This document shows, one piece after another, positions 1 through 17,526 of a stretch of 64,000 bases of DNA. Made by a program: the position numbers and the translations under genes. Under the pieces are notes generated by a model. It saw only the letters and a list, made by a program, of their open reading frames with translations. It ran no database searches and was not told where the DNA came from. Source of the DNA: Eubacteriales bacterium. GTDB taxonomy: Bacteria > Bacillota > Clostridia > Oscillospirales > CAG-272. How positions within the stretch are numbered: the stretch's first letter is position 1; each line of letters begins with the position of its first letter. The stretch lies in the NCBI GenBank assembly GCA_045594785.1, contig JAZNZE010000004.1, positions 39,254-103,253 on the forward strand, in the 5' to 3' direction.

Positions 1-1415
1 GTAATATAACCTCAATTTCGGTAAACGGTGTGGAACAATACAGATATGTGTATGATAACGTAGGTCAACTCTTGAGAGAGGACAATGTTCCTAAGAATAA
101 AACCTATGTACATACATATGATAATGCAGGCAATCTAAAATCAAGGAAAACGTATCCACTTACAGCAGCTGATGTGATACCGAGTGGTAATTACGTTTCG
201 GTTAGCCGTGCATATTCCACAAGCGCATGGGGTGATCTTCTCACTTCGTACGGCGGAGTTGCAATAACCTATGATGAAATAGGAAATCCTCTTAGCTACC
301 TAGGAAAAACGTTTACCTGGGAAGGCAGGCGTCTTGTTAGTGCTGTAAGCAGCAGCAAAACTATAACCTTCGAGTATAACGATGAAGGTATACGCACAAG
401 TAAAACCGTAAACGGAGTAACGACAAATTATTATCTTAACGGTTCTCAGATAATGGCTGAAGAAACTAACGGTAATATTACGGTTTATCTGTATAATAAT
501 ACAGGCATAATCGGTTTCCAATACCGCGCTTCAACCTATGCGGCTGACGTTTGGGATACTTATTTCTACGAAAAGAATCTGCAGGGTGACATAATAGCTG
601 TATACACATCCGATGGAGCAAAGAAGCTCTCTTATACCTATGATGCCTGGGGTAATTTCACTGTGACCTACCTCAACGGAGCAAACCTAGTCACGATGAA
701 AACTTTGTTTGCTTACAGAGGTTATTACTACGATAGTGACTTAGGTTTCTACTATCTTAATTCAAGGTATTATGACAGTAATACCGGTAGGTTCGTGAAT
801 GCAGATAACCAACTTTCAACAGGTAGTGATTTGACAGGAATAAATTTGTTTGCTTACTGTGGCAACAATCCTGTTAATCGTATAGATCCAGATGGACATG
901 CGTGGAAAGATATTAAAAATTGGTTCTCAAACACCTGGAATAATGTTAAGAAAACTGCTAAACAAATTGTAAAAACTGTTAAGAAAAAAGCTTATACAAC
1001 TTACTACAATGCAACTAAGTGGCATTTCGAGGATAGAGAAAAGAAAAATGGAACACCTCCGACTTATTCAGAAGTGAATGATAGGAATTCTGGCTGGAAT
1101 CTCTTGCCTGAAAGCCAATCGATATATCACGATAATGGAGTTGGTAAATCAGAACTTAAGTATATAACTGATGATGGACGAGAAGCTGTATTTGATGGCG
1201 ATACACTAGAACCAGTTACAGATCCGAGATATATTGCTACCTATAACTATTGCCCACTATACCAAATGCCATCTACTGGTGCTGGGGTTTTAGACTATGT
1301 CAAATTGGCTGGCTCGGGAGTCGGACATTTCTTTGCGGATATGGTGCCGTACTATCTAACCGGAAATAGTAATACGAGAGAGCAGTTTGAATCGAAAGTC
1401 TTTTTCTTTGATTAG
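1..1415 (+). CDS. RHS/YD-repeat polymorphic toxin, 3' portion (5' end lies off-window) with a variable C-terminal toxin tail
   Basis: The frame is open from the left edge (codons in phase with nt 3). YD/RHS repeats (YTYDAWGN, YRGYYYDSDLGFYYLNSRYYDSNTGRF) end in the core-end motif NLFAYCGNNPVNRIDPDGH (about nt 840-899). The last ~170 aa (900-1415) share nothing with the tails of the downstream cassettes. The ORF track lists only the ATG-started part 30..1415. Confidence 0.85.
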   Translation, partial: NITSISVNGVEQYRYVYDNVGQLLREDNVPKNKTYVHTYDNAGNLKSRKTYPLTAADVIPSGNYVSVSRAYSTSAWGDLLTSYGGVAITYDEIGNPLSYLGKTFTWEGRRLVSAVSSSKTITFEYNDEGIRTSKTVNGVTTNYYLNGSQIMAEETNGNITVYLYNNTGIIGFQYRASTYAADVWDTYFYEKNLQGDIIAVYTSDGAKKLSYTYDAWGNFTVTYLNGANLVTMKTLFAYRGYYYDSDLGFYYLNSRYYDSNTGRFVNADNQLSTGSDLTGINLFAYCGNNPVNRIDPDGHAWKDIKNWFSNTWNNVKKTAKQIVKTVKKKAYTTYYNATKWHFEDREKKNGTPPTYSEVNDRNSGWNLLPESQSIYHDNGVGKSELKYITDDGREAVFDGDTLEPVTDPRYIATYNYCPLYQMPSTGAGVLDYVKLAGSGVGHFFADMVPYYLTGNSNTREQFESKVFFFD

Positions 1416-1426
1416 GAGGGATCTGA

Positions 1427-1966
1427 ATGAAAAAAGAATTAAGGAGCGTAATGATTATTATGTTATCCATAGGTATGATTTTAGGTTTATGCTCATGTCG
1501 CATGAAGGAGAGCTACAAGGAGTTTAATATTAAAAACATAACCGGTAGTGTGAATGATAATTATTTTACTTCAGAAGATTTTTCTTTTGCAAGAATTCAG
1601 AATATTGTGATTATACCCGAAGTCAAGGCTATAAACCACGAAGAATATATTATATACATATCCGCATATTCAAAGAGCGGAAAAGAAATTGTTCAAATTA
1701 AAAATGTAATTTTCAAAGAAAAAGAGTGTGTTTTGTTAAACAACGAGTTGGGGAACAAGATTGAATTTAAACAGAATGCTAACTCTATATACGAGGGATG
1801 GATTGATGGAGGAACCTTTACAGAAGAAACTTTGAAGGTGGCAGATGGTAAAAAGTATGACATTATAATTGAAGTTGATGTTTTTGATAATGGTTTAAAC
1901 ATATCAAAAAACTTAACGTTTGAAATGGACATAAAAGGATATAAATCATTTGTTTGGCCAACGTAA
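1427..1966 (+). CDS. putative cognate immunity protein (predicted lipoprotein)
   Basis: It starts 11 nt after the toxin stop, with GGAGGG 6 nt upstream of the ATG. The N-terminus MKKELRSVMIIMLSIGMILGLCSC looks like a signal peptide with a lipobox-like LCSC. It is a small A+T-rich gene in the canonical immunity position. No family recognised. Confidence 0.55.
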   Translation: MKKELRSVMIIMLSIGMILGLCSCRMKESYKEFNIKNITGSVNDNYFTSEDFSFARIQNIVIIPEVKAINHEEYIIYISAYSKSGKEIVQIKNVIFKEKECVLLNNELGNKIEFKQNANSIYEGWIDGGTFTEETLKVADGKKYDIIIEVDVFDNGLNISKNLTFEMDIKGYKSFVWPT

Positions 1967-2065
1967 GAAAAAGGGGTCAAAAAAAGAAATGCATTTGTGG
2001 CAACATGATTTGAATATGTATTATAAGAGCAAATATGGCGTATTGCCGCCTCTGAACAAACGTGG

Positions 2066-2485
2066 ATGGTGATTATAATGAACCTTCATATTAATTCCCC
2101 ATCATATTACAGTCAAATTCACGGAATTGATGACGAGATATATAAAATGTGTCGATTATTAGAAAAAAATGTCGATATAAAAAAATATACATCTCTGTTA
2201 GATACCGTGGGAATAACACCGATTGTTGCTCCGAATTTTGAAATAGGCTGTGCTAACTATGCAGAAGTAAAATATATCAGTTTGCCTTATCGAATGGCAA
2301 GCATATCGCTGCATATTGACTACTTGGAGTATGTTTCTGTGAATATTGAAGAAAAAAAGGCGCTGATTATCAAAAATATTTTAAATTCGTTGTTAGTAAT
2401 AAAAAAACGGTTAAAAAATGGTTTTGACTATGTACGGATTGAAAATGATATTTTAACATTAGTGAAAGCCCCGAATGATAGATGA
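2066..2485 (+). CDS. hypothetical cytoplasmic protein, possible orphan or second immunity protein
   Basis: Intact 139-aa ORF with no signal peptide or TM segment, A+T-rich, lying between immunity candidate 1 and the next rhs cassette. An alternative start is ATG 2078. Function not recognisable from sequence. Confidence 0.4.
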   Translation: MVIIMNLHINSPSYYSQIHGIDDEIYKMCRLLEKNVDIKKYTSLLDTVGITPIVAPNFEIGCANYAEVKYISLPYRMASISLHIDYLEYVSVNIEEKKALIIKNILNSLLVIKKRLKNGFDYVRIENDILTLVKAPNDR

Positions 2486-2624
2486 ATGCAAAAAATGAAA
2501 CGAACTAAAAGCGGTTATGTATAGCATTTATAGAATATGAAAACGATGATTTTTACCACGATTTCTCATCTCAGATATTCTATAATGATAATTATACTAT
2601 ACTTATACATACTCTTATTCAACT

Positions 2625-3215
2625 TCCGGTTGGGGTGATCTGCTAACATCATATAACGGTCGTGAAATTACTTACGACGAGATAGGAAACCCTCTTAGCT
2701 ATTATAACGGTGCTTCGTATACATTCTCTTGGACGGGTAAAGAACTGACGGGGCTTGTAAAGAGTGGAAACACATACTCCTTTACTTACAATGATGCCGG
2801 AATACGTACTACAAAAACCAAGAACGGAGTAACAACAACCTACTATCTCAGCGGTTCTCAGATAATGGCAGAGGAAAGATGCGGTGAAATTACGGTTTAT
2901 CTGTATAATAATACAGGCATAATCGGTTTTCAATACCGCGATTCAACCTATGCAGCGGACGTTTGGGATACATACTTTTACGAAAAGAACTTGCAGGGTG
3001 ACGTTGTCGGTATATACGATGCAAACGGAACAAAGCTTGCTTATTATACCTATGATGCGTGGGGCAATTTCACTACTGCATACTACAGCGGAGCACCGTA
3101 TCCTGTATTTAGTAATCCCTTCACATACAGAGGCTATTATTATGATAGAGACCTAGGGCTTTATTATCTGAATTCCAGGTATTATGACAGCATGACCTGT
3201 AGATTCGTGAATGCG
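2625..3215 (+). repeat. more diverged direct repeat of the rhs core segment (aligns to about nt 220-805)
   Basis: The conserved blocks WGDLL...YDEIGNPLSY and IMAEE..ITVYLYNNTGIIGFQYR...YYLNSRYYDS are shared at nucleotide level. There is a 3-codon length difference upstream of the ATG at 2865. Confidence 0.8.
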
Positions 3216-3869
3216 GATACGTTTGATGTAATAACCGCAACACCCGGTGCTCTTACCGATAAGAATCTCTATGCCTACTGCGATAATAATCCCATTATGC
3301 GTACAGATGAAGACGGTGAATTTTGGTTAGGTCTTGCGATTGGTGCTGTGGTTGGTGCGGTAGGAGGTATTGTTGGTCAAGTTATAAGCGATATGGTTAC
3401 TAGCGCATTAAATTTTGAAGTAACAATTAGCAATTGGCAAACATATGTTGGTGCTGCCGTTGGCGGTGCTGCTGGTGGAGTAGTTATTGCTGCTACAGCT
3501 AATATAAGTGCCGCTAATGCGGTTGTAGGTGCCGTTACAACAGCTGTAGGGCAATCGTTAGAAAAATTAACAATTAGTGATTACGATAAATCCTGGATGG
3601 AGATAGGTTCAAATGCCGTTGTAGATGGTACAGTTAGTTATGGTCTAGGAAAAATACCCGGAATTAAGGGAGCGACTGCAGGAAGAAACAGCTGGTCTGC
3701 AGTGTACAAATCCGGACTAACCAAGTTAAGACACGGAACTGCTGCCAAAATGAGTGCCAAAGTGGTTACTAAGGGAGTTGGATCAAATGTTGTTGGTGGT
3801 TTTGCGCTCGATGGATATTATGGTCTAAAACAATATGCTTACGATAAATTAAAAAATCCATTAGCATAG
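2865..3869 (+). CDS. orphan RHS C-terminal cassette with a Gly-zipper, membrane-toxin-like tail (RHS-homologous frame is open from 2592 without a start codon)
   Basis: It has the same RHS core as feature 1 (TVYLYNNTGIIGFQYR, YYLNSRYYDS), ending NLYAYCDNNPIMRTDEDGEFW (~nt 3320). The frame is open and RHS-like from 2592 (YSTSGWGDLLTSYNGREITYDEIGNPLSY), but there is no ATG/GTG/TTG before 2865 and no RBS. The tail 3321-3869 is Gly/Ala-rich with repeated GxxxG (GLAIGAVVGAVGGIVG, GAAVGGAAGGVV). Confidence 0.7.
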   Translation: MAEERCGEITVYLYNNTGIIGFQYRDSTYAADVWDTYFYEKNLQGDVVGIYDANGTKLAYYTYDAWGNFTTAYYSGAPYPVFSNPFTYRGYYYDRDLGLYYLNSRYYDSMTCRFVNADTFDVITATPGALTDKNLYAYCDNNPIMRTDEDGEFWLGLAIGAVVGAVGGIVGQVISDMVTSALNFEVTISNWQTYVGAAVGGAAGGVVIAATANISAANAVVGAVTTAVGQSLEKLTISDYDKSWMEIGSNAVVDGTVSYGLGKIPGIKGATAGRNSWSAVYKSGLTKLRHGTAAKMSAKVVTKGVGSNVVGGFALDGYYGLKQYAYDKLKNPLA

Positions 3870-3879
3870 GAGTTAGGAA

Positions 3880-4419
3880 GTGAACAAAATTAAGAAGCTC
3901 TTTGAAGTCCAAACCAAGTTGACATCTTATACCTACCCAATAGTAAAGATAATAATATGTATAGCTATTATTATTTTCACTTATATTCGAAATCTAATCT
4001 TTCGTTTTTCAATCCCATGGGCTAATATAGTACTTACAGTGCTATGTGCTCAATTAATGATTTTCAGTATTCTTTGGTTGTATATTTCTATTGGCGAATT
4101 GTTCCATACATTTGAGAATCGTAGACGTATAAATAAAAATTATCAATTCGTAAATGTAAAACAATTGACAACAGAAGCTATAACTAAAATAGTGTCCGAA
4201 AATGATATTGTTGAGATTGAAGTGTATGACGGTAATAAAATTATCCAAATAGGAGCAAGTTCAGACTGTAAATATTCAAGTTGTATATTTACAGATAAAT
4301 TGTTTTATATATCAGATTCGGATTATGAAACAATAGAAATATTTACAGAAGCGTTAATTGCTTTGTTCCCTACAGGAAGTGTACCTGTTTATAAAATTGA
4401 TGGTTTACCTTTAACTTAA
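3880..4419 (+). CDS. putative immunity protein for cassette 2 (integral membrane)
   Basis: GTG start 10 nt after the cassette-2 stop, with AGGA-type purine run upstream. Hydrophobic helices (IVKIIICIAIIIFTYI, ANIVLTVLCAQLMIFSILWLYISI) are followed by a soluble C-terminal part. Very A+T-rich. Confidence 0.55.
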   Translation: MNKIKKLFEVQTKLTSYTYPIVKIIICIAIIIFTYIRNLIFRFSIPWANIVLTVLCAQLMIFSILWLYISIGELFHTFENRRRINKNYQFVNVKQLTTEAITKIVSENDIVEIEVYDGNKIIQIGASSDCKYSSCIFTDKLFYISDSDYETIEIFTEALIALFPTGSVPVYKIDGLPLT

Positions 4420-5451
4420 TATATATTATTTGTTCTCGATACCGACTATACCTTTACCGAAACAAGCACGCAAACCTCATCACAGGTAAAAACCTATAAG
4501 ACAACGGTAAACGGAACCGCGACAACCTACACGTACACCTACGATTCCAGAGGTAATATAACCTCAATTTCAGTAAACGGCGCGCAGCAGTATAGGTACG
4601 TATATGATAACCTCAGCCAGCTAATAAGAGAAGATAATATACCTAAAAATAAAACTTATGTTTACAAATATGACAATTCAGGTAATATATTATCAAAGAA
4701 AACCTATTCGTTAACTGCGGCAGGCGTAACGCCTACAGGCTCATATACCGAGAATAGCTACACCTATTCTACAGGCGCATGGGGAGACCTTCTTATCTCG
4801 TATAACGGCGCAAGTATTACCTACGATGCGATAGGAAATCCGCGTAACTACCGAGGCAAAACGTTCACTTGGGAAGGAAGACGTCTTGTAAGTGCAATAA
4901 ACGGAAGTAACACTCTGACCTTCAAGTATAACGATGAAGGTATACGCACAAGCAAAACTGTAAACGGTATAACCACGAACTATTACTTAAACGGTTCTCA
5001 GATAATGGCAGAGGAAAGATGCGGTGATATTACGGTTTATCTGTATAATAATACAGGCATAATCGGTTTTCAATACCGCGCTTCAACCTATGCAGCGGAC
5101 GTTTGGGATACTTACTTTTACGAAAAGAATCTGCAGGGTGACATAATAGCTGTATACACAGCCGATGGAGTAAAGAAGCTCTCTTATACCTATGATGCCT
5201 GGGGTAATTTCACTGTGACCTACCTCAACGGAGCAAACTTAGTCACGATGAAAACTTTGTTTGCTTACAGAGGTTATTACTACGATAGTGACTTAGGTTT
5301 GTACTATCTTAATTCAAGGTATTATGACAGTAATACCGGCAGATTCATTTCAGCGGATGACATTGGTATCATTTGTTCTATACCGAATGCATTAACCGAT
5401 AAAAATCTATACAAAGTTTTTATTATGTCATCACAAATCATAGCGAAATAA
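4420..5451 (+). pseudogene. truncated orphan RHS fragment (no start, no toxin tail, no immunity gene)
   Basis: The frame opens at 4420 directly after a TAA, and RHS homology begins at ~4438. Nt 4553-5352 are colinear with nt 1-800. There is no start codon until 5005. After ALTDKNLY the frame leaves the core-end motif (no YCxNNP/DPxG) and stops 12 codons later. Confidence 0.65.
4553..5352 (+). repeat. near-identical direct repeat of rhs core segment nt 1-800 (constant offset 4552, no indels seen)
   Basis: By-eye alignment: for example 453-800 versus 5005-5352 differ only at scattered positions. Identity drops abruptly after the codons for SNTGRF. Confidence 0.9.
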
Positions 5452-5504
5452 AAAAGCTCACTTTCGATAAATGAGCTAAAGCATTTGATATTATTACTGA
5501 GAAA

Positions 5505-5542
5505 GCAGCTCAAACCTTGCGTTTGAGCTGCCTTCGTTTTTT
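5505..5542. terminator. bidirectional stem-loop terminator between convergent units
   Basis: An 11-bp perfect stem gcagctcaaac / gtttgagctgc with loop cttgc. A T-run (tttttt) lies a few nt downstream on + and TTTCTC follows on -. It sits between the rhs relic (+) and the 5550..7151 gene (-). Confidence 0.65.
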
Positions 5543-7400: not shown

Positions 7401-10400
7401 ATGAAATCAGCACGCTATACGCCAACCGAAAACGGTTTTCGGGTCAGAGGCAGCTCCGAGGTTTTTAACAGAACCCTCTACGGCTCGCATAAAAACGATG
7501 AAAATCCCGAGAGATTTTTAACCTTTGCAGGCGATGCGCCTCAGATTATGGGCGCGGTTTCCGACTGGCTGAAAAGCACGGTTTCCTATTACGCAAAGTG
7601 CGGTGTTCTGAATAGCGGACTTGCCATAACTCCCGGTAAGCGCTCGAGATTTTATTATTCCGAGCACATCGACCAGACTTCGAAGTGGTTTCACGATTCC
7701 GAGGATATAGAGGCAGAGTTCAAAAACGGCTGGATGGAATACGAGCTTTCTCAGATGTCCGCCTGGTTTCCTGACGTGCGTATTAAAATGGAGGTTTATC
7801 CTCTTCTTCCCGATGACGGATATATAGTTCATTACAGGGTGACCTCAGACCAGCACGTGCATTTCGTGGCAGGCTTTGGCGGAATTACTGACGTTCTCTG
7901 CCGTTTTGAATATAAGGGTGAGCCGAGGCGTCATTTTTCGGCTGAAAACTGTATAGGAAACACCGTCACTATAGGCAAAAACCGCGCCTCTGTAACTCAT
8001 ACGGACGGCAAGAATATGAGAATTGCCACGAGCTTTGACGCGGATTTTGCGCTCGGCTCGGCAAAGTCTATGTCAGAGCCATATCCAAGCACCTTCGTAA
8101 GAAGCAATCCCGAAGATGAAAACGATTGCGTTGTCAGAATTTCCGCGCCCATTGAGCCCGGCAAGGCATTTGACGGATTTATCGTTGCCGTTTATAATTC
8201 TGACGAGGAAACGCTCGACAAGTGGCTTAATATGAAAAACCCCATAGGCTGCGTAAAGGAGCAGATATACGCAAAGCTTGCCTGCATCGACCTTGCAACT
8301 CCCGAAAAGACGCTCGACCTCACTGTAGCTCCTACCGTAATTGCCCTGGATTCCTCGTGGCATAAGGATTCCTTCCATCACGGCGCTTTTGCTTATCACG
8401 CGCCCTTCCTCGGTTGGAGAAACTGGTATGCTCCTACTGCGCTCGGCTGGAGGGACAGAGTTTCAAAGACTATGAAAAAGTACTTTGCGCTTATATCGAA
8501 GGGTGACGTTAAGAACGAGCGCGTATGGTACGATGACACTCCTATTCCTGACGGGCAGAATAAATTTGACAGAAGATATCATTATCAGGAAAACCCTGTA
8601 GGAAGACTTCCTTCCTGCTTTGATTCAAATCAGAATCCCGAATACGGCCCTTACAATATGCAGGAATGTGCTCTCGATATGATGCTCTATTACATAGAGT
8701 GGTCGGGAGACCTTGAAATAGCAAGAGAGCATTACGATGATATGTGCTCCATGGTAGAGTGGGAGAGAAGAACCTTTGACCCCGATGATGACGGACTTTA
8801 TCAGAATCTTCTCAACACCTGGATTTCTGACGGTCATAACTATAACGGTGCAGGCTGCGCGCAGTCTAGCGCTTATAACTACAGAGCAAATCTCGTTCTC
8901 GCGAAAATTGCCGAGAGAATAGGCAGAGACGGAAAGGCGTTCAGAGAACGTGCAGAAAAAATCAAAAAAGCTCTAAATGACAACCTATGGTTAGCAAACG
9001 AGGGTGTTATTGCCGAATCTCTCGACACCGTGGGCAGTTGCCTTATTCACCCATCGGTAGAGCTTCCTACCGTATATCACGTTATGGATTCGGATATGAT
9101 TGACGGCTTTAAGGCGTACAGAACTCTTAAATACACCGAAAACCATATACAGAACGTAACCACTCCTTCGGGAAAGGGAAGGCTTTGCTATTCTTCTAAC
9201 TGGCTGCCTAAGCAGTATTCCAACTGCGGAATTTTCCCTGCCGAGAACGCGCACCTCGCGCTTATGTATTTCAAGCTCGGACTTAAGGAGGAGGGCAAGC
9301 GGATACTTGACGGAATCAGAGACTGCTATTACAGCGGCAGGAATCCCGGTATGGCGGCTCACGTTCAGTCGCCTATGTGTACCTGCGACCTCGGAGATAT
9401 GGATTTTACTGACGTGTCAAGCACCTATCTCCGCCTCGTCATAGAGGGACTTTTCGGAATCAGAATCGATTCGCTTTCCGACAGACTTTACGTATCGCCC
9501 GGATTCCCGAGCGACTGGGAAAATGCCAGCATTTCCCTTAGGGATATTTCTCTTACCTATACGAGAGCCGGCAATCGCGAGGTCTTCTCAATATGCTCGG
9601 AAAGAGCCGAGAAAAAGGTTATAAGAATTCCTATGCGATGCGCGGATATAGAGGCGGTTATGCTTGACGGTGAGCCCGTGGCTTATGATATCGAAGCCTC
9701 TCCCAACAATAGCTTTATAACCGTTCAGGTTGATAAGCGCGGCAGGTTTCAGCTTCGCGTAATGCACGGCAGAGAGCCGATTCCTCAGCTTCTGTTCCCG
9801 GAGAGTGTTATTGAAGGCGGCAGAATATCCTTTGAGCTTTCGGGCGGTGAAATTGCCGAGATTTTTGATATTTCAGAGGCGCTTTCGGATATCAGTACGG
9901 TAGGAAACAAGGTTTACGCAACCGCAAAAAATGCCAAGGGAGACCACACCCTCTTTATCCGCGCAAGGTCGGGAGAGTATGACGGCTGGCTTGCAGCCGA
10001 TTACAGTATTCTTTCTGAAGAAAAGGCGGAAGCTCCTCTTTCCGATAAGCCGTATCAGACTATAGATATATCGGACTTCTTTAACTGCAGTATGACCGAG
10101 CTTCACGAGCAGGCGTATATTCAGCCGAGACCCGAGGGATATTCTATGGGTATGTATCAGAACGGAAGGTATTCGCATAACTGGACGCAGATGGGACGCA
10201 ACGTTGTTATGGTTGACGATTCCTTATTCAGAAATTCCGGAGGCACGGTGTACAGTCCATCGGGAATTCCGTTCAGAACGCCTGCCGAGAAGGATAATCT
10301 TGCCTGCGTTTCGGTTTTTGAAAGATTTCCGACAGAAATGACCTTCTCGCTTGACGGAAAAGGAGAGGAGCTTGCAGTTCTCTTTATTACCAGCTCCTGC

Positions 10401-10673
10401 TGCCTGCATTCCTACGTTGACGGCGTGCGTATAACCGTCAGCTATTCTGACGGTACTGCCGAGAGCGAAGCGCTCGTCTATCCCGAAAGCCTTGACGACT
10501 GGCTTACCTCAGCCCTAACCACCAAGGCTGAAATCTTCTATTTCAGCGACTATAACCACGCTACCGTAAAGAAAATCAGGCTCAATCCCGAAAAGAGCTT
10601 AAGCTGTGTAAAAATAGAAGCGGTAGCTAACGAGCTTATTTTCGGCGTTGCGGGAATAAGTCTGCGTAGGTAG
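7401..10673 (+). CDS. large cytoplasmic protein, probable (alpha/alpha)6 six-hairpin glycoside-hydrolase-like enzyme
   Basis: 1090 aa with no signal peptide. The central region (ECALDMMLYYIEWSGDLEIAREHYDDM...YNYRANLVLAKIAERIGRDGKAFRERAEKIKKALNDNLW) resembles six-hairpin glycosidase helices. The exact family is not recognised. Confidence 0.45.
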   Translation: MKSARYTPTENGFRVRGSSEVFNRTLYGSHKNDENPERFLTFAGDAPQIMGAVSDWLKSTVSYYAKCGVLNSGLAITPGKRSRFYYSEHIDQTSKWFHDSEDIEAEFKNGWMEYELSQMSAWFPDVRIKMEVYPLLPDDGYIVHYRVTSDQHVHFVAGFGGITDVLCRFEYKGEPRRHFSAENCIGNTVTIGKNRASVTHTDGKNMRIATSFDADFALGSAKSMSEPYPSTFVRSNPEDENDCVVRISAPIEPGKAFDGFIVAVYNSDEETLDKWLNMKNPIGCVKEQIYAKLACIDLATPEKTLDLTVAPTVIALDSSWHKDSFHHGAFAYHAPFLGWRNWYAPTALGWRDRVSKTMKKYFALISKGDVKNERVWYDDTPIPDGQNKFDRRYHYQENPVGRLPSCFDSNQNPEYGPYNMQECALDMMLYYIEWSGDLEIAREHYDDMCSMVEWERRTFDPDDDGLYQNLLNTWISDGHNYNGAGCAQSSAYNYRANLVLAKIAERIGRDGKAFRERAEKIKKALNDNLWLANEGVIAESLDTVGSCLIHPSVELPTVYHVMDSDMIDGFKAYRTLKYTENHIQNVTTPSGKGRLCYSSNWLPKQYSNCGIFPAENAHLALMYFKLGLKEEGKRILDGIRDCYYSGRNPGMAAHVQSPMCTCDLGDMDFTDVSSTYLRLVIEGLFGIRIDSLSDRLYVSPGFPSDWENASISLRDISLTYTRAGNREVFSICSERAEKKVIRIPMRCADIEAVMLDGEPVAYDIEASPNNSFITVQVDKRGRFQLRVMHGREPIPQLLFPESVIEGGRISFELSGGEIAEIFDISEALSDISTVGNKVYATAKNAKGDHTLFIRARSGEYDGWLAADYSILSEEKAEAPLSDKPYQTIDISDFFNCSMTELHEQAYIQPRPEGYSMGMYQNGRYSHNWTQMGRNVVMVDDSLFRNSGGTVYSPSGIPFRTPAEKDNLACVSVFERFPTEMTFSLDGKGEELAVLFITSSCCLHSYVDGVRITVSYSDGTAESEALVYPESLDDWLTSALTTKAEIFYFSDYNHATVKKIRLNPEKSLSCVKIEAVANELIFGVAGISLRR

Positions 10674-10735
10674 TTGTAGTTAGACGTGGGGTTATTGCGC
10701 TTTTCGTGAAAAGCGCGCAAAAGCTTTATAGAAAA

Positions 10736-10767
10736 AACGCTGAAGGACATAGTTCTTCAGCGTTTTT
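10736..10767 (+). terminator. rho-independent terminator of 7401..10673
   Basis: Stem aacgctgaag / cttcagcgtt (10 bp), loop gacatagtt, followed by TTTTT. Confidence 0.8.
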
Positions 10768-11067
10768 AAATGTTTGAATGAGGTCGGGATTTTGTCTTTT
10801 TTGAAAAACAAAGAGCTATGAAATCTTGCAAAATCATAGCTCTTAATTGTTTAAAGTTTTTGGGCGCTTTTTTCAAAAAGTGCATTAACCTTCGTTTTTT
10901 TAAGCTTCCGGCTTCATTGTGGGTAGCAAGACAAAAATCTTCTAAATGACGATTTTTGTTGCAGCGAAACCGCCCAAAGCAAGAAGCGGACGGAGCCGAG
11001 TGTACCGAGGCGATGGGCTGCGCCTATGCGGCGGTGGAGGGGCTCGGCTTGTGGGTGCAAAAAAGCT

Positions 11068-12579
11068 TTAAGTTTCGGGTTTCATAGTGGGGAAAAGTAT
11101 AACCTCACGAATGGTATCGTTTCCGGTAAGCATCATTACTGTTCTGTCAACTCCGATACCCATACCGCCTGTGGGGGGCATACCGTATTCCATAGCGGTG
11201 AGGAAGTCCTCGTCAAGCATTTCTGCCTCGTCATCGCCTCTGTCGCGGAGCTCAAGCTGCTTCATAAAGCGCTCGCGCTGTACGATAGGGTCGTTAAGCT
11301 CGGAGTATGCATTTGCAAGCTCGCTGTGGCAGATGAAGAGCTCAAAGCGCTCGGTAAGTCTGGGGTCTTCGGGGCTTGCCTTAGTGAGAGGAGATACCTC
11401 TACGGGATACATAGTTATGAAGGTAGGCTGAATGAGCTTTTCTTCTACGCGCTGGTCAAAGCAAGCGTAAAGCGCGTTGCCCCAGGTCTTATCTGCGGTA
11501 TCTGCAAGCTCAACGCCAATCTTCTTTGCTGCGGCAACCGCCTCGGCGTCATCGGTTATAGCGCCGAAGTTAACGCCAGCATATTCCTTGACCGCATCAA
11601 CCATAGTGAGTCTGCGCCAGCCGGGAGTGAGGTCGATTTTCTCGCCCATCCACTCAAGCTCGTAAGTACCGAGAAGCTCTTTTGCCGCACCTGAAATGAT
11701 GCCCTCTGCGATGTCCATCATATCGTGGAAATCGGCATAAGCCTGATAAAGCTCGATTGTGGTAAACTCGGGGTTGTGCTTAGGGTCCATACCCTCGTTT
11801 CTGAATATTCTGCCTATCTCATATACTCTGTTCATACCGCCGACAATAAGACGCTTCAAGGGAAGCTCGGTTGCGATACGCATATACATATCGATATCGA
11901 GGGTATTGTGATGAGTTACGAAGGGGCGCGCGGAAGCACCGCCTGCGATAGTGTTAAGAACAGGGGTTTCTACTTCAACGTAATCTCTCTCATCGAGATA
12001 CTTACGCATAAACTTTATGAACTGCGAGCGAATGATGAAATTGCGCTTTACCTCCGGGTTAACGATAAGGTCAACGTATCTCTGTCTGTATCTCTGCTCA
12101 AGATTTGTGAGACCGTGGAACTTTTCGGGAAGGGGAAGGAGAGACTTTGCAAGCAGGGTAGCGCTCTTTGCGTGAACCGATACTTCACCGGTACGGGTGC
12201 GGAAGAGAACGCCTTCGACACCGATTATGTCACCTATATCCCATTTCTTGAAGCTCTGATAGTCCTCGTCACCGAGGTCGTCACGGGAAACGTAGAGCTG
12301 AATTTTGCCTTCACCGTCAAGAAGATGAGCGAAGGAAGCCTTACCCATAACTCTTCTTGCCACCATTCTTCCCGCAATTCTTACGGTGATTTCTTCACCC
12401 TCTGCGAGAGCAGGCTCTTTTTCGGTGAACTCTGCAATTGCCTTTACGCTCGAATAAGTAACCTCGTACTTCGTTATTTCAAAAGGATTTTTGCCTGCCT
12501 CAATGAGACCTGCAAGCTTTTCTCTGCGAACTACAAGCTCGCTTGTTGAGTTCTGCTGATTGTTCTGTTCATTTCCCAT
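11068..12579 (-). CDS. lysS: lysine--tRNA ligase (class II)
   Basis: 503 aa with a typical LysRS N-terminus (RREKLAGLIEAGKNPF), an OB-fold anticodon-binding region and class II catalytic motifs (FRNEGMDPKHNPEFT, GMGIGVDR). Downstream of greA, as in many Firmicutes. Confidence 0.95.
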   Translation of the reverse strand: MGNEQNNQQNSTSELVVRREKLAGLIEAGKNPFEITKYEVTYSSVKAIAEFTEKEPALAEGEEITVRIAGRMVARRVMGKASFAHLLDGEGKIQLYVSRDDLGDEDYQSFKKWDIGDIIGVEGVLFRTRTGEVSVHAKSATLLAKSLLPLPEKFHGLTNLEQRYRQRYVDLIVNPEVKRNFIIRSQFIKFMRKYLDERDYVEVETPVLNTIAGGASARPFVTHHNTLDIDMYMRIATELPLKRLIVGGMNRVYEIGRIFRNEGMDPKHNPEFTTIELYQAYADFHDMMDIAEGIISGAAKELLGTYELEWMGEKIDLTPGWRRLTMVDAVKEYAGVNFGAITDDAEAVAAAKKIGVELADTADKTWGNALYACFDQRVEEKLIQPTFITMYPVEVSPLTKASPEDPRLTERFELFICHSELANAYSELNDPIVQRERFMKQLELRDRGDDEAEMLDEDFLTAMEYGMPPTGGMGIGVDRTVMMLTGNDTIREVILFPTMKPET

Positions 12580-12604
12580 TTTTTAAGTGTCCTTTCAAAA
12601 AGAA

Positions 12605-13084
12605 TCAGTCCTTAGCTCTCGAAACCTTCTTTACGAGAAGGTGCTGTTCTCTTACTCCGTTTACTACGACCTCATCACCTGCTCTTGCTCCGAGAAGAGC
12701 TGCTCCTATAGGTGAGGAATCCGAAATTTTGCCTGAGAGGGGGTCGGTCTCGTAAGAGCCAACTATGTGATAGGTGAAATCCTTGTTTCTTTCCTTGTTA
12801 TGAAGCTCTACGATAGAGCCAACGCTGATAACCGATTCGTCTATCTGGGATTCGTCAATAACCTTTGCGTTTGCAATCATTTCCTTAAGCTCTGCTATGC
12901 GGGAATGAATTTTGCCCTGCTCAGCCTTTGCCTCATCGTATTCGCTGTTCTCGGAAAGGTCACCGAATGCTCTGGCTGTCGAAATGTCCTTTTTGTTTTC
13001 TTCTACCTTTACGTTAACGAGGAAGTCGAGCTCGTCCTGGAGGGCCTTAAAGCCCTGGGGGGTGTAAGTCTTGGTTTCTGACAT
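12605..13084 (-). CDS. greA: transcription elongation factor GreA
   Basis: 159 aa with the coiled-coil N-terminal region ARAFGDLSENSEYDEAKAEQ and a GreA C-terminal domain. Confidence 0.95.
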   Translation of the reverse strand: MSETKTYTPQGFKALQDELDFLVNVKVEENKKDISTARAFGDLSENSEYDEAKAEQGKIHSRIAELKEMIANAKVIDESQIDESVISVGSIVELHNKERNKDFTYHIVGSYETDPLSGKISDSSPIGAALLGARAGDEVVVNGVREQHLLVKKVSRAKD

Positions 13085-13113
13085 TTTGATTTATCTCCTG
13101 AAGTTGTATTTTA

Positions 13114-14469
13114 TTATTTATTTACGAGAAGCTTGTTTGCTTCCGTATAAGCGCGCTCAAGATAGTCTGATGCCGTGGGGTTTTCTATAGGCTCACCGTC
13201 AGCGTCCATATCAACGTCAAGAGGTACTCCGTCACCGTTATAATGGTTGCCGAGCGGAGTGTAGTAATACGCAACGGTCAGGGTGACAGCAGAGCCGTCA
13301 TAGAGGGTGTAGGTATTCTGCATAACGAATTTGCCGTAGGTTTTAGTTCCGCCCACGATAGTTACGGGAAAGTATTCCATTATAGCAAGGTCGCGAAGCC
13401 CTGCGGTGAAAAGCTCTGATGCCGATGCTGAATTGCGGTTGCACAGCACTACGGTAGGTATAGCGTAGGAATGCCCGTCACGTGATTTCTCGGGTGAATC
13501 GTATTCGTTTGAGAAGGAAGCGAGAATTAATCCGTCCTCAGCTATATAGTCAAGCATATTCACGACAGTCTCAAGATATCCGCCTCCGTTGTCGCGAACG
13601 TCATAAATTATAGCTTTTGCCTTATTCTCTTTCATATAGTCTATGGCTTCGATAAAAAGCTCGTCTGTGTTTTTCTTGAAGGAATTTATATCGATATATC
13701 CGATTCCGCTTTCGTCAAGCTCGTAGTCGACCGTAGGCTCGATAACGGGACCGCGGGTTACGGTGATGTCGAGAGTCGTTTCCCCGCGTCTCACGGTTAT
13801 AACCACGTTCGTACCCGATTCTCCCTTTACTCTGTCAATGGCAGCCTGGTATCCGATTTCGGTAACCGCCACACCGTCAATCGCGATTATCATATCTCCC
13901 GCAAGCACGCCGGCGTTGTAGGCGGGCGAATTGCGTATCGGCTTGATAACAAGAATTCCGTCCTCGACAAGAGACGCCTGAACGTTGACGCCTATTCCGT
14001 AGAAGGTAGGCTGAGTGCCGCTCATATTCGAGGTGTAATCCTCATACTGCTCGTTCGTGCGGTAGAATGAATACTTGTCGCCTATAGCTTTAACGAACGC
14101 TGTGAGCAGAGCGTCAGAAACCATACCTGAGCTTTCAAGGTCTGTTTTGTCGTAGCTGTTTTCAAGAAAGTCGTTTGCAACCGCCTTGGCAAGCTCGTAA
14201 GAGGAAGGAATCTCCTCGTAGTAATGGTCGCGGTAAAGCTTTTCTACCTTTTTCAGCTTGTTCTGGTCAAATACCGGAAATTTCCAGGCGTCAAGGTATT
14301 CCCAAACGTACTGGCGGCTTTCGTTCGTTTCGGCTGAGACGTTTGCGCTCAGCTCTTCCTTGGTGTATATTACCTCGCTTCCCGCGGCGCAGGAGGTGAG
14401 CGTCAGAGTAAGAGTGAAAAGCAGAGTGAGCAAAACGAGAAGAAGGGAAATTTTGTTTTTTGTTTTCAT
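13114..14469 (-). CDS. S41 family C-terminal processing peptidase (lipoprotein, PDZ domain)
   Basis: Signal peptide with lipobox LTSC, a PDZ-like GDMIIAIDG segment, and S41 motifs DVRDNGGGYL and SASASELF. Confidence 0.85.
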   Translation of the reverse strand: MKTKNKISLLLVLLTLLFTLTLTLTSCAAGSEVIYTKEELSANVSAETNESRQYVWEYLDAWKFPVFDQNKLKKVEKLYRDHYYEEIPSSYELAKAVANDFLENSYDKTDLESSGMVSDALLTAFVKAIGDKYSFYRTNEQYEDYTSNMSGTQPTFYGIGVNVQASLVEDGILVIKPIRNSPAYNAGVLAGDMIIAIDGVAVTEIGYQAAIDRVKGESGTNVVITVRRGETTLDITVTRGPVIEPTVDYELDESGIGYIDINSFKKNTDELFIEAIDYMKENKAKAIIYDVRDNGGGYLETVVNMLDYIAEDGLILASFSNEYDSPEKSRDGHSYAIPTVVLCNRNSASASELFTAGLRDLAIMEYFPVTIVGGTKTYGKFVMQNTYTLYDGSAVTLTVAYYYTPLGNHYNGDGVPLDVDMDADGEPIENPTASDYLERAYTEANKLLVNK

Positions 14470-14551
14470 ATTCGCCTTTCATTACTGCCTTAGCAGTCGC
14501 TTTTCAAATTTATCGGGGAGGCGTACGGATATCCTCCCCAAAAAATATCGG

Positions 14552-15637
14552 TTAAAACTTAGTAGGCTTGCTTGTGAGATATTTTTTAACCATAAGAGCA
14601 ACCTTGAAGGTTACTGCGTGGTCAAACTCGCGAAGGTCAAGTCCTGTAAGCTTTCTTATCTTTTCAAGTCTGTATACGAGAGTGTTTCTATGTACGAAAA
14701 GCTTTCTTGAGGTTTCGGAAACGTTAAGATTGTTTTCAAAGAAGCTCTGAACGGTCATAAGCGTTTCTCTGTCAAGCGAAGAAAGCGAGCCCTTCTTGAA
14801 TACTTCCTGAAGGAAGATTTCGCAAAGAGTGGTGGGGAGCTGGTAAACAAGTCTTCCTATACCGAGGTTTTCGTAAGACATTATAGGCTTCTCGATATCG
14901 AATACCTTGCCGACCTCAAGCGAGATTTTTGCTTCCTTGTATGCTCTTGCAAGGTCCTTAAGGCTTTCGGAAACCGAGGAAATACCGATAAGAATCTTTG
15001 CCGAATATTCGTTTGCCACGGTTTTGAGGATTTCTTCCGCGAACGCTTCAAGCTCCTCCGAGGAGGTGTTCTTGGCAACCTCTTTTACTATTACTATGTC
15101 CTGCTCGCTGATACTTATGACGTAATCCTTGGTTTTATCGGTAATTATTGATGAAATTACCTCGTAAGGAACGAAAGAGCCTGCACTGAGGAACTTGATT
15201 ACTATAACCGCGCGGTGCTCCTCGCTGCTGAAATGAAGCTCGTTTGACTTAATATAAATGTCGCTTGGAAGGATATTGTCAAGAAGAATGTTCTTTATGA
15301 ACGAGCCCTTGTCGTATTTCTCATCGTAAAGGCTTTTGATATTGCCGAGCGAAATCGATATAAGCTGGCACATCTTAGAGGCGTGCAAATCGTCACCCTC
15401 AACGAAAGCGATTGATTCGGTCTTCTCCTGAGCGCCAACGAAGCGGTAGGTGTAGCCGTCATATACTATCGAATCCTGAGAATAGGTAAGCTCTTCCTTG
15501 ATTCTCTGCTTGGATTCTCCTATCTTAGCGAGGTCGGAGCAGGCAATAACTATTCCGTTCTCGTCTATAACACCTATAGTTCTGCCAACGACATCGCGCA
15601 TCTGGTGTATAATGGTCTGGTACAAGCGGTTTGACAT
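14552..15637 (-). CDS. PucR/CdaR family transcriptional regulator
   Basis: C-terminal PucR-type HTH (ETSRKLFVHRNTLVYRLEKIRKLTGLD). The preferred start is ATG 15637 (MSNRLYQ), preceded by GGAGGG. The ORF-track start at 15673 lacks an RBS. Confidence 0.8.
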   Translation of the reverse strand: MSNRLYQTIIHQMRDVVGRTIGVIDENGIVIACSDLAKIGESKQRIKEELTYSQDSIVYDGYTYRFVGAQEKTESIAFVEGDDLHASKMCQLISISLGNIKSLYDEKYDKGSFIKNILLDNILPSDIYIKSNELHFSSEEHRAVIVIKFLSAGSFVPYEVISSIITDKTKDYVISISEQDIVIVKEVAKNTSSEELEAFAEEILKTVANEYSAKILIGISSVSESLKDLARAYKEAKISLEVGKVFDIEKPIMSYENLGIGRLVYQLPTTLCEIFLQEVFKKGSLSSLDRETLMTVQSFFENNLNVSETSRKLFVHRNTLVYRLEKIRKLTGLDLREFDHAVTFKVALMVKKYLTSKPTKF

Positions 15638-15866
15638 AAAACCCTCCAAGAAAAATAATCTGAAAACAGTCAAAAAACAACCGCACCTTTCGGGTGCGTG
15701 CCTGTTGAATTTTCCTGTATGAAAAACCGCCTTTTCAAGCGGTTTGTCAATACTGTACTATATTTTAACCTATTTTTTGATATTTTTCAATAGTTTTTTG
15801 AAAAATAATTACGAAATACACAAAAAAATTAACAATTGTTTGTATATTTTTAACCTTTTGTTCTTA

Positions 15867-16604
15867 TTACAGCTCAAATTGATAGGAAATTGCGGACAAA
15901 ACGTAGCTTGGCGCCGTTTCACATCTGAGAATTCTCGGGCCGAGATTTACGATATGCGCTCCCATATCCTTGGCAGCGGCTGCTTCAGCAAGCGAAAAGC
16001 CGCCCTCAGAGCCGACAATAACGGCAAGCGTCTTTACGTTACTGTCAAACGAAGAAAGAACCTCTTTGAGCGACCTTGCTCCGTCACCCTCGTAGCAGAA
16101 TAGAACGGCATCGGCTTTTTTTGCCTCGCGCAGCATTTCGGAGTAGGAGAGGGAGGGAAGAATTTTCACAAGCCTGCTTCTTCCGCATTGCTTTGCCGCT
16201 TCCTCTGCAATTCTCGTAAGCCTTGCGTTTTCGCGCTCAGCCTTCTCGGGCTTTGGCTTCTTTACGCATCTTGAGGATTCAAAGGGAGCAATTTCGCACA
16301 CTCCAAGCTCAACCGCCTTCTGAGTTACGACCTCAAGCTTATCTCCCTTTGGGTATGCCATATACAATGAAACGTAGAGTGGGGATTCGGTTTTTCCCTC
16401 GCTGACCGAAAGGACAGCGCATACGCACTCGCTGTCTCTTATTCTGGTAATGGCGCAGGAATACTCAGCTCCGTGCATATCGCAAACGGTTATAAGGTCT
16501 CCCACCGCCATTCTTAATGCTCTCGCTATATGAAAAGCGTCATCTCCCGTGATTTTGACTTCGCTTTCCGAAAAATTATCGCTCGGTACGAAAAATCTAG
16601 GCAT
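15867..16604 (-). CDS. rsmE: 16S rRNA (uracil1498-N3)-methyltransferase RsmE
   Basis: Begins MPRFFVP (typical RsmE) at ATG 16604, one nt after the prmA stop. C-terminal GSEGGFS SPOUT motif. Confidence 0.85.
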   Translation of the reverse strand: MPRFFVPSDNFSESEVKITGDDAFHIARALRMAVGDLITVCDMHGAEYSCAITRIRDSECVCAVLSVSEGKTESPLYVSLYMAYPKGDKLEVVTQKAVELGVCEIAPFESSRCVKKPKPEKAERENARLTRIAEEAAKQCGRSRLVKILPSLSYSEMLREAKKADAVLFCYEGDGARSLKEVLSSFDSNVKTLAVIVGSEGGFSLAEAAAAKDMGAHIVNLGPRILRCETAPSYVLSAISYQFEL

Positions 16605-16605
16605 A

Positions 16606-17526
16606 TCAGCCCTCTGCCGCAACGAGCATGGCAAGCCAGTCGTTTTCGGTTTCTTCCTTAATTATTTTGTATCCGTATTTCTTTACGGCTTCTCTTATCT
16701 CCTCGGCTCTGGGGCTTATAATTCCCGAGAGAATTATTTTTGCATCCGGCTTTACGTAGTCGGAGAGGTCGGGAAGCATACGCAGAATTATATCCGCAAC
16801 TATGTTGGCAAGGCAAACGTCATATCTGCCGCCCGAAAGGTCAACGCCTTTAAGAAGGTCGGACACCCCAACGGTGATATTGTCGCAGCCGCCGTCTCTT
16901 GCGTTTTCTCTTGCAACCTTAACGGCAACGGGGTCGATGTCGTAGGCATTGCAGCTTTTCGCTCCGAGCTTTGCCGCGCAAATCGAAAGTATGCCCGAGC
17001 CCGTTCCCATATCGAGTATTCTTTTATCCGCAAGGTCCTCGTCCTGCATAAGACGGATAACCAGCCTTGTCGTTTCGTGCGTTCCCGTGCCGAAAGCCAT
17101 ACCCGGATCCATTCTTATGATTACCTCGTCTTTATCGGGGGTATAATCCTCCCAGGCGGGAACTATGGTGATTTTGCCGAGCTTTACCGGCTTGTAATAC
17201 TGCTTCCAGCTCTCAGCCCAGTCCTCCTCGCACATTCCCTCCGCGGTTATCTCAGCGTCTATTCCGAGAGAAAGAAATCTCTCGGCAATAAAGGCTCTGC
17301 ATTCGGGAAGGCTTCTTTCCTCGGGAACGAAAACCGATACCTTCACCGTATCCTTATCTGCGTTGAGTATGCTGTCGTCTACAAGCTCGCCGTACATTCC
17401 GTTAAGCGAAAAATCGCTGTAATCCTCTATCATAAGTCCGTTGTCTATCATACTCATAACCGAGCTTATAGTGTCAAGGTCTGCGGTTTTTCCCGCGGCC
17501 GTAAGCTTAGTCCAATTTCCTGCCAT
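16606..17526 (-). CDS. prmA: ribosomal protein L11 methyltransferase PrmA
   Basis: 306 aa with the SAM-binding motif ILDMGTGSGILSI and the conserved IRMDPGMAFGTGTHETT block. prmA-rsmE pairing. Confidence 0.9.
   Translation of the reverse strand: MAGNWTKLTAAGKTADLDTISSVMSMIDNGLMIEDYSDFSLNGMYGELVDDSILNADKDTVKVSVFVPEERSLPECRAFIAERFLSLGIDAEITAEGMCEEDWAESWKQYYKPVKLGKITIVPAWEDYTPDKDEVIIRMDPGMAFGTGTHETTRLVIRLMQDEDLADKRILDMGTGSGILSICAAKLGAKSCNAYDIDPVAVKVARENARDGGCDNITVGVSDLLKGVDLSGGRYDVCLANIVADIILRMLPDLSDYVKPDAKIILSGIISPRAEEIREAVKKYGYKIIKEETENDWLAMLVAAEG

Follow-up and report, generated by a model that had tools for sequence, protein, structure and literature searches.

The closest described systems to the locus analysed here are WapA/WapI of Bacillus subtilis and Rhs-CT/RhsI of Enterobacteria, in which a rearrangement hotspot (RHS) shell, Sec-exported or linked to a type VI secretion system (T6SS), ends in a DPxG core motif and is followed by a variable tail, then directly downstream by an immunity gene, and by an array of orphan cassettes lacking their own start. 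We examined a stretch of 64,000 nucleotides (nt) from an Eubacteriales bacterium of the Oscillospirales (contig JAZNZE010000004.1, positions 39,254 to 103,253, forward strand; hereafter the window), which shares this layout and in which the 171-amino-acid (aa) C-terminal tail of an RHS protein directly precedes a gene for a predicted lipoprotein. Whereas the tails of WapA and Rhs-CT are mostly cytoplasmic tRNases, DNases and ADP-ribosyltransferases (ARTs) with cytoplasmic immunity proteins, this locus combines a tail without any match with an immunity candidate that is predicted to be exported and lipid-anchored. We consider it moderately probable, on comparative and modelling grounds, that the tail is an envelope-acting toxin neutralised by its lipoprotein neighbour and works as a metal-dependent hydrolase, with peptidoglycan or another wall polymer as the favoured substrate.

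Further parallels concern the compartment. TelC/TipC of Streptococcus intermedius and the lipocone toxins (PMC12419801) likewise pair a Gram-positive toxin acting outside the cytoplasmic membrane with a membrane-anchored, outward-facing immunity protein, as is predicted here, but they show no likeness to our pair in sequence or fold, and their carriers belong to the LXG type of the type VII secretion system (T7SS) instead of RHS. The periplasmic T6SS pairs Tae/Tai, Tge/Tgi and Tle/Tli resemble the present family in that PAAR, VgrG-like and RHS carriers occur among its members and that immunity comes with a signal peptide or lipobox; they differ in that our tail carries no signature or fold of the NlpC/P60, lysozyme-like or alpha/beta-hydrolase kind, and in that the family also occurs in monoderms without a T6SS. 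In the survey of Zhang et al. 2012, Tox-JAB-1/Imm65 is the sole pair with a lipobox-bearing lipoprotein as immunity protein; the locus in the window has a predicted lipoprotein immunity in common with it, yet shows no Pfam match to those families and no JAB fold.

The frame at 3..1415 (+) is the 3' portion of an RHS/YD-repeat gene encoding 2160 aa, which begins 5' of the window at contig position about 34186 (full-length open reading frame, ORF, at 10187..16669 in the coordinates of locus L002) and whose product starts with a Sec-signal-like signal/transmembrane segment (MENYTKNQFRGKLTTKLITLFLTLLIIFLAIPSIVYA/ETAEA). Within the window frame, RHS repeats were detected with Pfam (PF05593, E=2.5e-7) and the RHS-associated core with NCBIfam (TIGR03696 Rhs_assc_core, E=1.1e-18, aa 213-299), and the end of the core can be read directly in the sequence as …NRIDPDGH, a DPxG-type ending, after which the tail runs from AWKDIKNW to FFFD and the stop codon. 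With YD/RHS repeats and a core ending in DPxG, a tail shared with unrelated carriers, a candidate immunity gene in conserved downstream synteny and orphan cassettes, the locus can be assigned by its sequence to the standard WapA-type RHS polymorphic toxin architecture.

The toxin tail, its family and its predicted fold

Searches of Pfam (E<=1), of NCBIfam, of PHROGs and of the PDB sequences, with the tail as a single sequence or as a profile, gave no match, and the only weak profile matches concerned the tape-measure-like composition of its Lys-rich helix. For 82 full-length relatives, Pfam at E<=1 returned no family over the toxin part and no consistent weak one either. Searched exhaustively with phmmer, 1.84 billion representatives of clusters at 50% identity yielded 322 homologues at E<=1e-3, of which 155 reach E<=1e-10; they share a core corresponding to about aa 35-158 of the tail. 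The domain is almost always the extreme C-terminus of its carrier, with a median of 1 residue behind it, and its N-terminal partners comprise RHS/YD shells, PAAR, Tox-PAAR-like, DUF4280, Neisseria MafB, the core of extracellular contractile injection systems (eCIS_core) and a VgrG-like Phage_GPD segment, while some members carry plain Sec signals or are stand-alone forms. Three members have a Pfam match to PG_binding_1, a PG_binding_1-like segment lies just N-terminal of the toxin domain in four (local phmmer), and one Sec-signal stand-alone member bears two LysM domains C-terminal of it; the metagenome scan found this LysM-fused form at one locus, located at a contig end before any downstream gene.

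A scan with one genome per species yielded 53 toxin-domain loci. They fall in Bacillota (Eubacteriales, Neobacillus, Bacillus, Sutcliffiella, Halanaerobacter), in Gammaproteobacteria (Vreelandella/Halomonas, Shewanella, Microbulbifer, Gayadomonas, Saccharospirillum, Aliidiomarina) and in Treponema, Myxococcota, Desulfopila (Desulfobacterota), Planctomycetota, Terasakiella, Acidimicrobiales, Kiritimatiellota, Opitutales and Gemmatimonas. The tail had no match in any of 24 genomes sampled from the same genus, an absence that looks like the patchy spread expected of a mobile toxin cassette, and tblastn against a plasmid collection found none. The public records of the homologues that we checked name them merely 'hypothetical protein', searches of the literature for an effector like this brought up nothing specific, and both toxin and lipoprotein are families without description in the libraries searched. 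At five loci of Neobacillus, Bacillus and Sutcliffiella (L011-L014, L019) the domain stands at the end of 360-430-aa proteins, after a helical N-terminal region of ~230 aa that is LXG-like by eye and has no Pfam match; the homologous lipoprotein comes next, followed in L012 by another gene of 264 aa.

Conservation was assessed in an alignment of 134 sequences spanning the toxin core. Invariant or near-invariant are H42 (96%), E44, R46, N50 (100%), H77 (100%), E85, K87, G93, R94, E95, T114, N116 (100%), Y117, H143 (100%), D147 (99%) and P150 (100%), and the aromatic residues W41, W66, Y76, Y88, Y111, Y115 and Y151 are conserved too. The AlphaFold2 model of the tail, built from 37 sequences, reached a predicted local distance difference test score (pLDDT) of 92.8 and a predicted template modelling score (pTM) of 0.77. 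It consists of a long helix (residues 2-39) that is rich in Lys over its first ~34 residues, which are not part of the conserved core, some short helices, a beta-hairpin (86-98) to which K87 and the DGRE motif belong, a long irregular stretch with TYNY, and a helix (130-153) that places H143 and D147 one turn apart. Foldseek found no match for the model in the PDB (best E=2.6, TM-score <0.2) or in BFVD (best E=0.65), and the modelled fold is thus unmatched in both.

Three described toxin types were tried as candidates for the tail and rejected. A lipocone or TelC-type toxin is not indicated, as Foldseek returned no TelC, SAA or Wnt entry from the PDB for the pLDDT 92.8 model; a colicin M-like toxin found neither a fold match nor a Colicin_M match in Pfam, in the tail or in the 82 relatives. 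A phospholipase A2 (PLA2)-like His-Asp dyad in IYHDNG had been offered in an earlier note on this DNA, which was made from the letters alone, and this suggestion did not hold: H77 is invariant, but of the 134 sequences 99 have Asp and 33 have Gln at position 78, neither the tail nor its 82 relatives match a PLA2 family of Pfam at E<=1, and the best PDB fold match stays at E=2.6.

The same data bear on whether the tail needs to be an enzyme. A membrane-disrupting or target-binding tail, neutralised at the membrane, would accord with the membrane-located immunity that is typical for pore-forming effectors and with the Lys-rich, amphipathic helix formed by the first 34 residues. This helix is not part of the conserved core, however, and the core itself is polar, with about 16 invariant or near-invariant residues that are mostly charged or polar and with no hydrophobic or glycine-zipper segment; moreover, immunity to pore formers is usually conferred by a polytopic membrane protein, as in orphan cassette 2 of the same array. 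We regard a non-enzymatic tail as the least probable of the explanations considered, and a very improbable one.

The downstream lipoprotein as candidate immunity partner

The ATG of the downstream gene lies 11 nt past the toxin stop codon, and the AGGAGG that overlaps this stop indicates a probable translational coupling of the two genes. The 179-aa product begins MKKELRSVMIIMLSIGMILGLCSC and has a signal peptide (aa 1-23) made up of the n-region MKKELR and VMIIMLSIGMILG with the lipobox L-C-S-C24, in which Cys at position -2 is unusual; by n-region, h-region and lipobox criteria it is a predicted bacterial lipoprotein (Lgt/Lsp substrate). It belongs to no Pfam family and has 77 close homologues. 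Its AlphaFold2 model (pLDDT 88.5) shows a signal helix and a mature eight-strand beta-sandwich, for which Foldseek returned just generic sandwich matches (Ig-like, NEAT and factor XIII, E about 1e-3). A 'DUF3261' label, which UniRef attaches to the immunity homologue of Microbulbifer aestuariivivens (P0360), was followed up and rejected, as Pfam hmmscan at E<=1 gave no DUF3261 match in this protein or in nine relatives.

The evidence that this protein is the partner of the toxin is comparative. From the 53 toxin-domain loci 39 downstream ORFs could be drawn, and in 33 of these, across monoderm and diderm phyla, a homologous lipoprotein of about 175 aa, in a range of 165-205 aa, comes next after the toxin (hidden Markov model, HMM, two iterations), the gap between toxin stop and downstream ORF being mostly -38 to +40 nt. 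An HMM built from the close homologues of the window lipoprotein alone detects the proteins of Shewanella, Saccharospirillum, Neobacillus and Halanaerobacter with E-values of 4e-10 to 4e-8. In an alignment of 49 lipoprotein sequences from many phyla, the lipobox Cys (C24) is the sole column conserved to at least 90%; examples of the downstream lipoboxes, with a slash behind the Cys, are LSAC/KTAKII, ISGC/ETAEIARF, LIGC/ETATIIDLYH, FSC/KTASIVNF and PGC/KGHSIVDF. A rule-based search recognised a lipobox in 29 of the 39 downstream ORFs, and most of the exceptions retain an N-terminal membrane segment. Furthermore, the identity matrices of toxin and lipoprotein correlate (Pearson/Mantel r=0.77, reached by 0 of 2000 permutations), with the lipoprotein diverging far faster, at about 15% identity where the toxins share about 50%; immunity proteins usually diverge faster than their toxins.

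In loci of Terasakiella (L032, L036) and in L039 and L040 the lipoprotein is replaced by a small multi-transmembrane or N-terminally anchored protein without the Cys (multi-transmembrane in Terasakiella), and such proteins may represent an alternative, membrane-located immunity type. Another informative locus stems from a metagenome-assembled genome of the Eubacteriales (L003, 3989-5019), where a toxin copy that is 84% identical in parts is broken by stops while the adjoining lipoprotein is intact, which fits a retained orphan immunity gene. By eye this lipoprotein differs from that of the window at a handful of positions, and it is embedded in an extended array of small, unrelated immunity-like genes.

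These results bear out most of what the earlier note had read from the letters. Its coordinates and quoted motifs all proved correct on re-reading the sequence, and the tail in which it recognised no signature came back empty from Pfam, NCBIfam, PHROGs and PDB; in particular, the profile searches of the first three placed it in no known nuclease family; a placement in one is what the note had listed as speaking against its proposal. The signal peptide and LCSC lipobox that it saw in the gene 11 nt downstream agree with a Cys that is near-invariant among homologues. Its suggestion to compare structural models of both proteins left the toxin without a match and the immunity candidate with generic sandwiches only. 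Its central proposal, a lipoprotein immunity protein and hence an extracytoplasmic target, now has strong comparative support from synteny (33 of 39), the conserved Cys and co-divergence.

Immunity proteins sit where their toxins act, in the cytoplasm for nucleases (WapI) and exported or lipid-anchored for envelope effectors (Tai, Tgi, Tli, TipC). Since the lipoprotein travels and co-diverges with the toxin, the toxin would be expected to act at the outer face of the membrane, in the wall or in the periplasm. The opposite assignment is that the toxin is cytoplasmic, a nuclease or nucleotide-acting enzyme, and that the lipoprotein is an accessory of export, maturation or reception or intercepts the toxin in transit. 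Most studied RHS and WapA tails are indeed cytoplasmic nucleases or ARTs, the eCIS_core and T6SS PAAR/VgrG carriers of the family are able to deliver into the cytoplasm, and phosphohydrolases, too, show an H…H…D pattern. However, no conserved cytoplasmic partner gene was found beside the toxin in the 53 loci, and the one candidate in the window, at 2066-2485, belongs to another cassette (see below). In addition, the lipoprotein is retained beside a broken toxin in the way orphan immunity genes are, Sec-signal stand-alone forms with LysM exist, and no profile or fold match to a nuclease, ART or deaminase was obtained. We judge a cytoplasmic site of action improbable.

Site of action and candidate chemistry

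In the mechanism that we propose, the 2160-aa Sec-exported RHS protein of this gut Clostridia bacterium would carry the tail, which would be freed after DPDGH by analogy to other RHS proteins and, as the comparative data suggest, would work outside the cytoplasmic membrane of the target cell, in the periplasm or wall compartment. The coupled downstream gene would provide the cognate immunity protein, a beta-sandwich tethered to the membrane via the lipidated Cys24 that neutralises the incoming toxin, presumably by binding it. H42, H77, H143 and D147, together with E44, E85 and E95, are candidate metal-binding or catalytic residues in the unmatched fold, while R46, K87 and R94 may hold an anionic substrate, such as a stem-peptide carboxylate or a (pyro)phosphate. 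The combination of three His and one Asp, with H143-x3-D147 on one helix, conserved Glu and the basic residues R46/K87/R94 suggests a metal-dependent hydrolase with an anionic substrate.

Regarding the substrate, a wall polymer is favoured because some members carry LysM or PG_binding_1. Taken on its own, the assignment to peptidoglycan or another wall polymer is a credible possibility that falls somewhat short of an even chance. Ranked next, and rather unlikely, are lipid-linked precursors or phospholipids: toxin, immunity protein and compartment would be the same, but the substrate would be linked to the membrane, for example lipid II, undecaprenyl-pyrophosphate (compare TelC and colicin M) or a phospholipid head group. 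As a rule, lipid II-directed toxins, TelC/TipC and those of the lipocone kind among them (PMC12419801), also come with a membrane-tethered immunity protein; a phosphate or pyrophosphate substrate would go well with the three His and the invariant R46, K87 and R94; and a target is required that occurs in monoderms and diderms alike. On the other side, Foldseek against the PDB brought up neither colicin M nor TelC, SAA or Wnt as a similar fold, the 82 relatives lack Colicin_M and PLA2 matches at E<=1 in Pfam, D78 is not conserved, and the fusions are to peptidoglycan-binding modules. The immunity lipoproteins of the Gammaproteobacteria add a weak argument from their sorting signals. In E. coli, Asp at position +2 marks lipoproteins for retention in the inner membrane; this Asp is missing from all the gammaproteobacterial immunity lipoproteins, which by the E. 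coli rule would be located in the outer membrane facing the periplasm, and this weakly suggests a periplasmic rather than an inner-membrane substrate.

Several points weigh against an envelope-acting hydrolase of the wall, or at least loosen the argument for it. No fold or profile match in PDB, BFVD or Pfam points to its chemistry, and the LysM and PG_binding_1 fusions, which constitute a small minority of the family, would also suit an enzyme acting on lipid-linked precursors. Among the 39 downstream ORFs, six do not belong to the lipoprotein family, the Mantel correlation can be obtained from shared descent alone, and eCIS and T6SS carriers can deliver into the cytoplasm. The envelope-acting hydrolase with a lipoprotein as its immunity protein is the reading that we retain. 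A bolder version of it, which we put forward tentatively as a less likely one, is that the tail represents both a new fold and a new catalytic class, with a His/His/His/Asp metal site of a kind not known from any wall hydrolase that cuts a bond of peptidoglycan or of a lipid-linked precursor common to monoderms and diderms and that is held in check by lipid-anchored beta-sandwich inhibitors.

Neighbouring cassettes and significance of the pair

The toxin and lipoprotein genes are followed by further cassettes, decayed or orphan, the coordinates of which are collected in Table 1.

Table 1. Features of the RHS toxin locus, in window coordinates.
Feature	Position	Strand	Basis
RHS carrier, 3' part	3..899	+	PF05593, TIGR03696, core end …NRIDPDGH
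Predicted C-terminal toxin domain, 171 aa	900..1415 (codons 900-1412, stop 1413-1415)	+	homologue family, conservation, AlphaFold2 model
Shine-Dalgarno AGGAGG (1414-1419), overlapping the toxin stop, and 7-nt spacer to ATG	1414..1426	+	read from sequence
Predicted lipoprotein, cognate immunity candidate, 179 aa	1427..1966	+	homologues, synteny, lipobox, AlphaFold2 model
Toxin-tail remnant, last 33 codons and stop	1971..2072	+	tblastn; within ORF 1950..2072
Putative Imm44-family immunity gene, 135 aa from ATG 2078; longer ORF from 2066	2078..2485	+	Pfam, PF15571 of homologues
Orphan cassette 2	2592..4419	+	direct repeats D1, D3, D5; TIGR03696 E=1.3e-16
Orphan cassette 3	4553..5531	+	direct repeats D1-D5; ORF 5005..5451; terminator scan

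The gene at 2066-2485 deserves attention as a rival immunity candidate, since the earlier note had considered that its cytoplasmic product, rather than the lipoprotein, might neutralise the tail. The 2078-2485 product matches Imm44 (PF15571) of Pfam with E=0.003 and 18.2 bits, under the cutoff of 25 (hmmscan), but all but one of its 96 homologues have a precomputed PF15571 match, and we assign it tentatively to the Imm44 family on this basis. No homologue of it occurs in any of the 53 loci of the toxin-tail family. In three metagenomic contigs (L065-L067), Imm44 homologues follow 5 nt after an RHS tail that ends in …GSKREMHAWQHDMNMYYRNKYGKFPPLNKRGW and a stop codon, and positions 1971-2069 of the window encode the last 33 aa of this Imm44-linked tail (79% identity, E=1e-15, tblastn), the stop of the remnant being followed, likewise after 5 nt, by ATG 2078. 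The region 1971-2485 thus appears to be a decayed cassette, in which the body of the toxin was deleted and a stump remains before an intact Imm44 gene. Imm44 has been associated with Tox-URI1, Tox-URI2 and Tox-ParBL1 (Zhang et al. 2012). The intact Imm44-linked toxins have no Pfam match and carry a Y…KFGE motif, from which the deleted toxin was probably of the URI-nuclease type. With no homologue in the tail loci and a stump of its own toxin before it, the Imm44 gene belongs to that other cassette, and we rejected 2066-2485 as the immunity gene of the tail at 900-1415.

The RHS core end recurs as a direct repeat at about 2600-3219 and 4553-5359, which makes three direct copies in all. In cassette 2, an ORF at 2865..3869 joins a core-end copy to a glycine-rich hydrophobic tail and is followed by a gene for a 179-aa membrane protein (3880..4419). 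The tail has glycine-zipper-like hydrophobic stretches (…GLAIGAVVGAVGGIVGQ…AAVGGAAGGVVIAATA…) and the downstream protein has transmembrane segments; cassette 2 resembles the pairing of a pore-forming tail with an immunity protein of the membrane, and we presume a likeness of this tail to Tse5. Cassette 3 holds a truncated core-end copy, with an ORF (5005..5451) that stops shortly past the core motif region, and the sole strong terminator-like hairpin of the array was located at 5505-5531 in the terminator scan. On the other side of the RHS gene, 5' of the window (contig about 32170-34115; L002 8170-10115), we observed minus-strand genes for a sigma factor of the extracytoplasmic function (ECF) type and for a membrane protein, a possible anti-sigma factor, and a 136-aa protein with a signal peptide is encoded directly 5' of the RHS gene. 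The sigma/anti-sigma pair and the 136-aa protein could possibly be regulators or accessory factors of the toxin.

Many new enzymes, and new means of killing bacteria, have come from polymorphic toxins. The locus illustrates how RHS arrays decay, with a toxin stump of 33 codons left before an intact Imm44 gene, and it brings to light a toxin domain that is common, with hundreds of clusters, at least six delivery systems and a distribution over many phyla, while bearing no family name and having no solved or fold relative in the libraries searched. Its conserved lipoprotein partner would narrow the site of action to the envelope, the compartment of most antibacterial interest, and as the two proteins are short (171 + 179 aa) and well modelled and offer clear targets for mutation, the function of the pair is directly testable.

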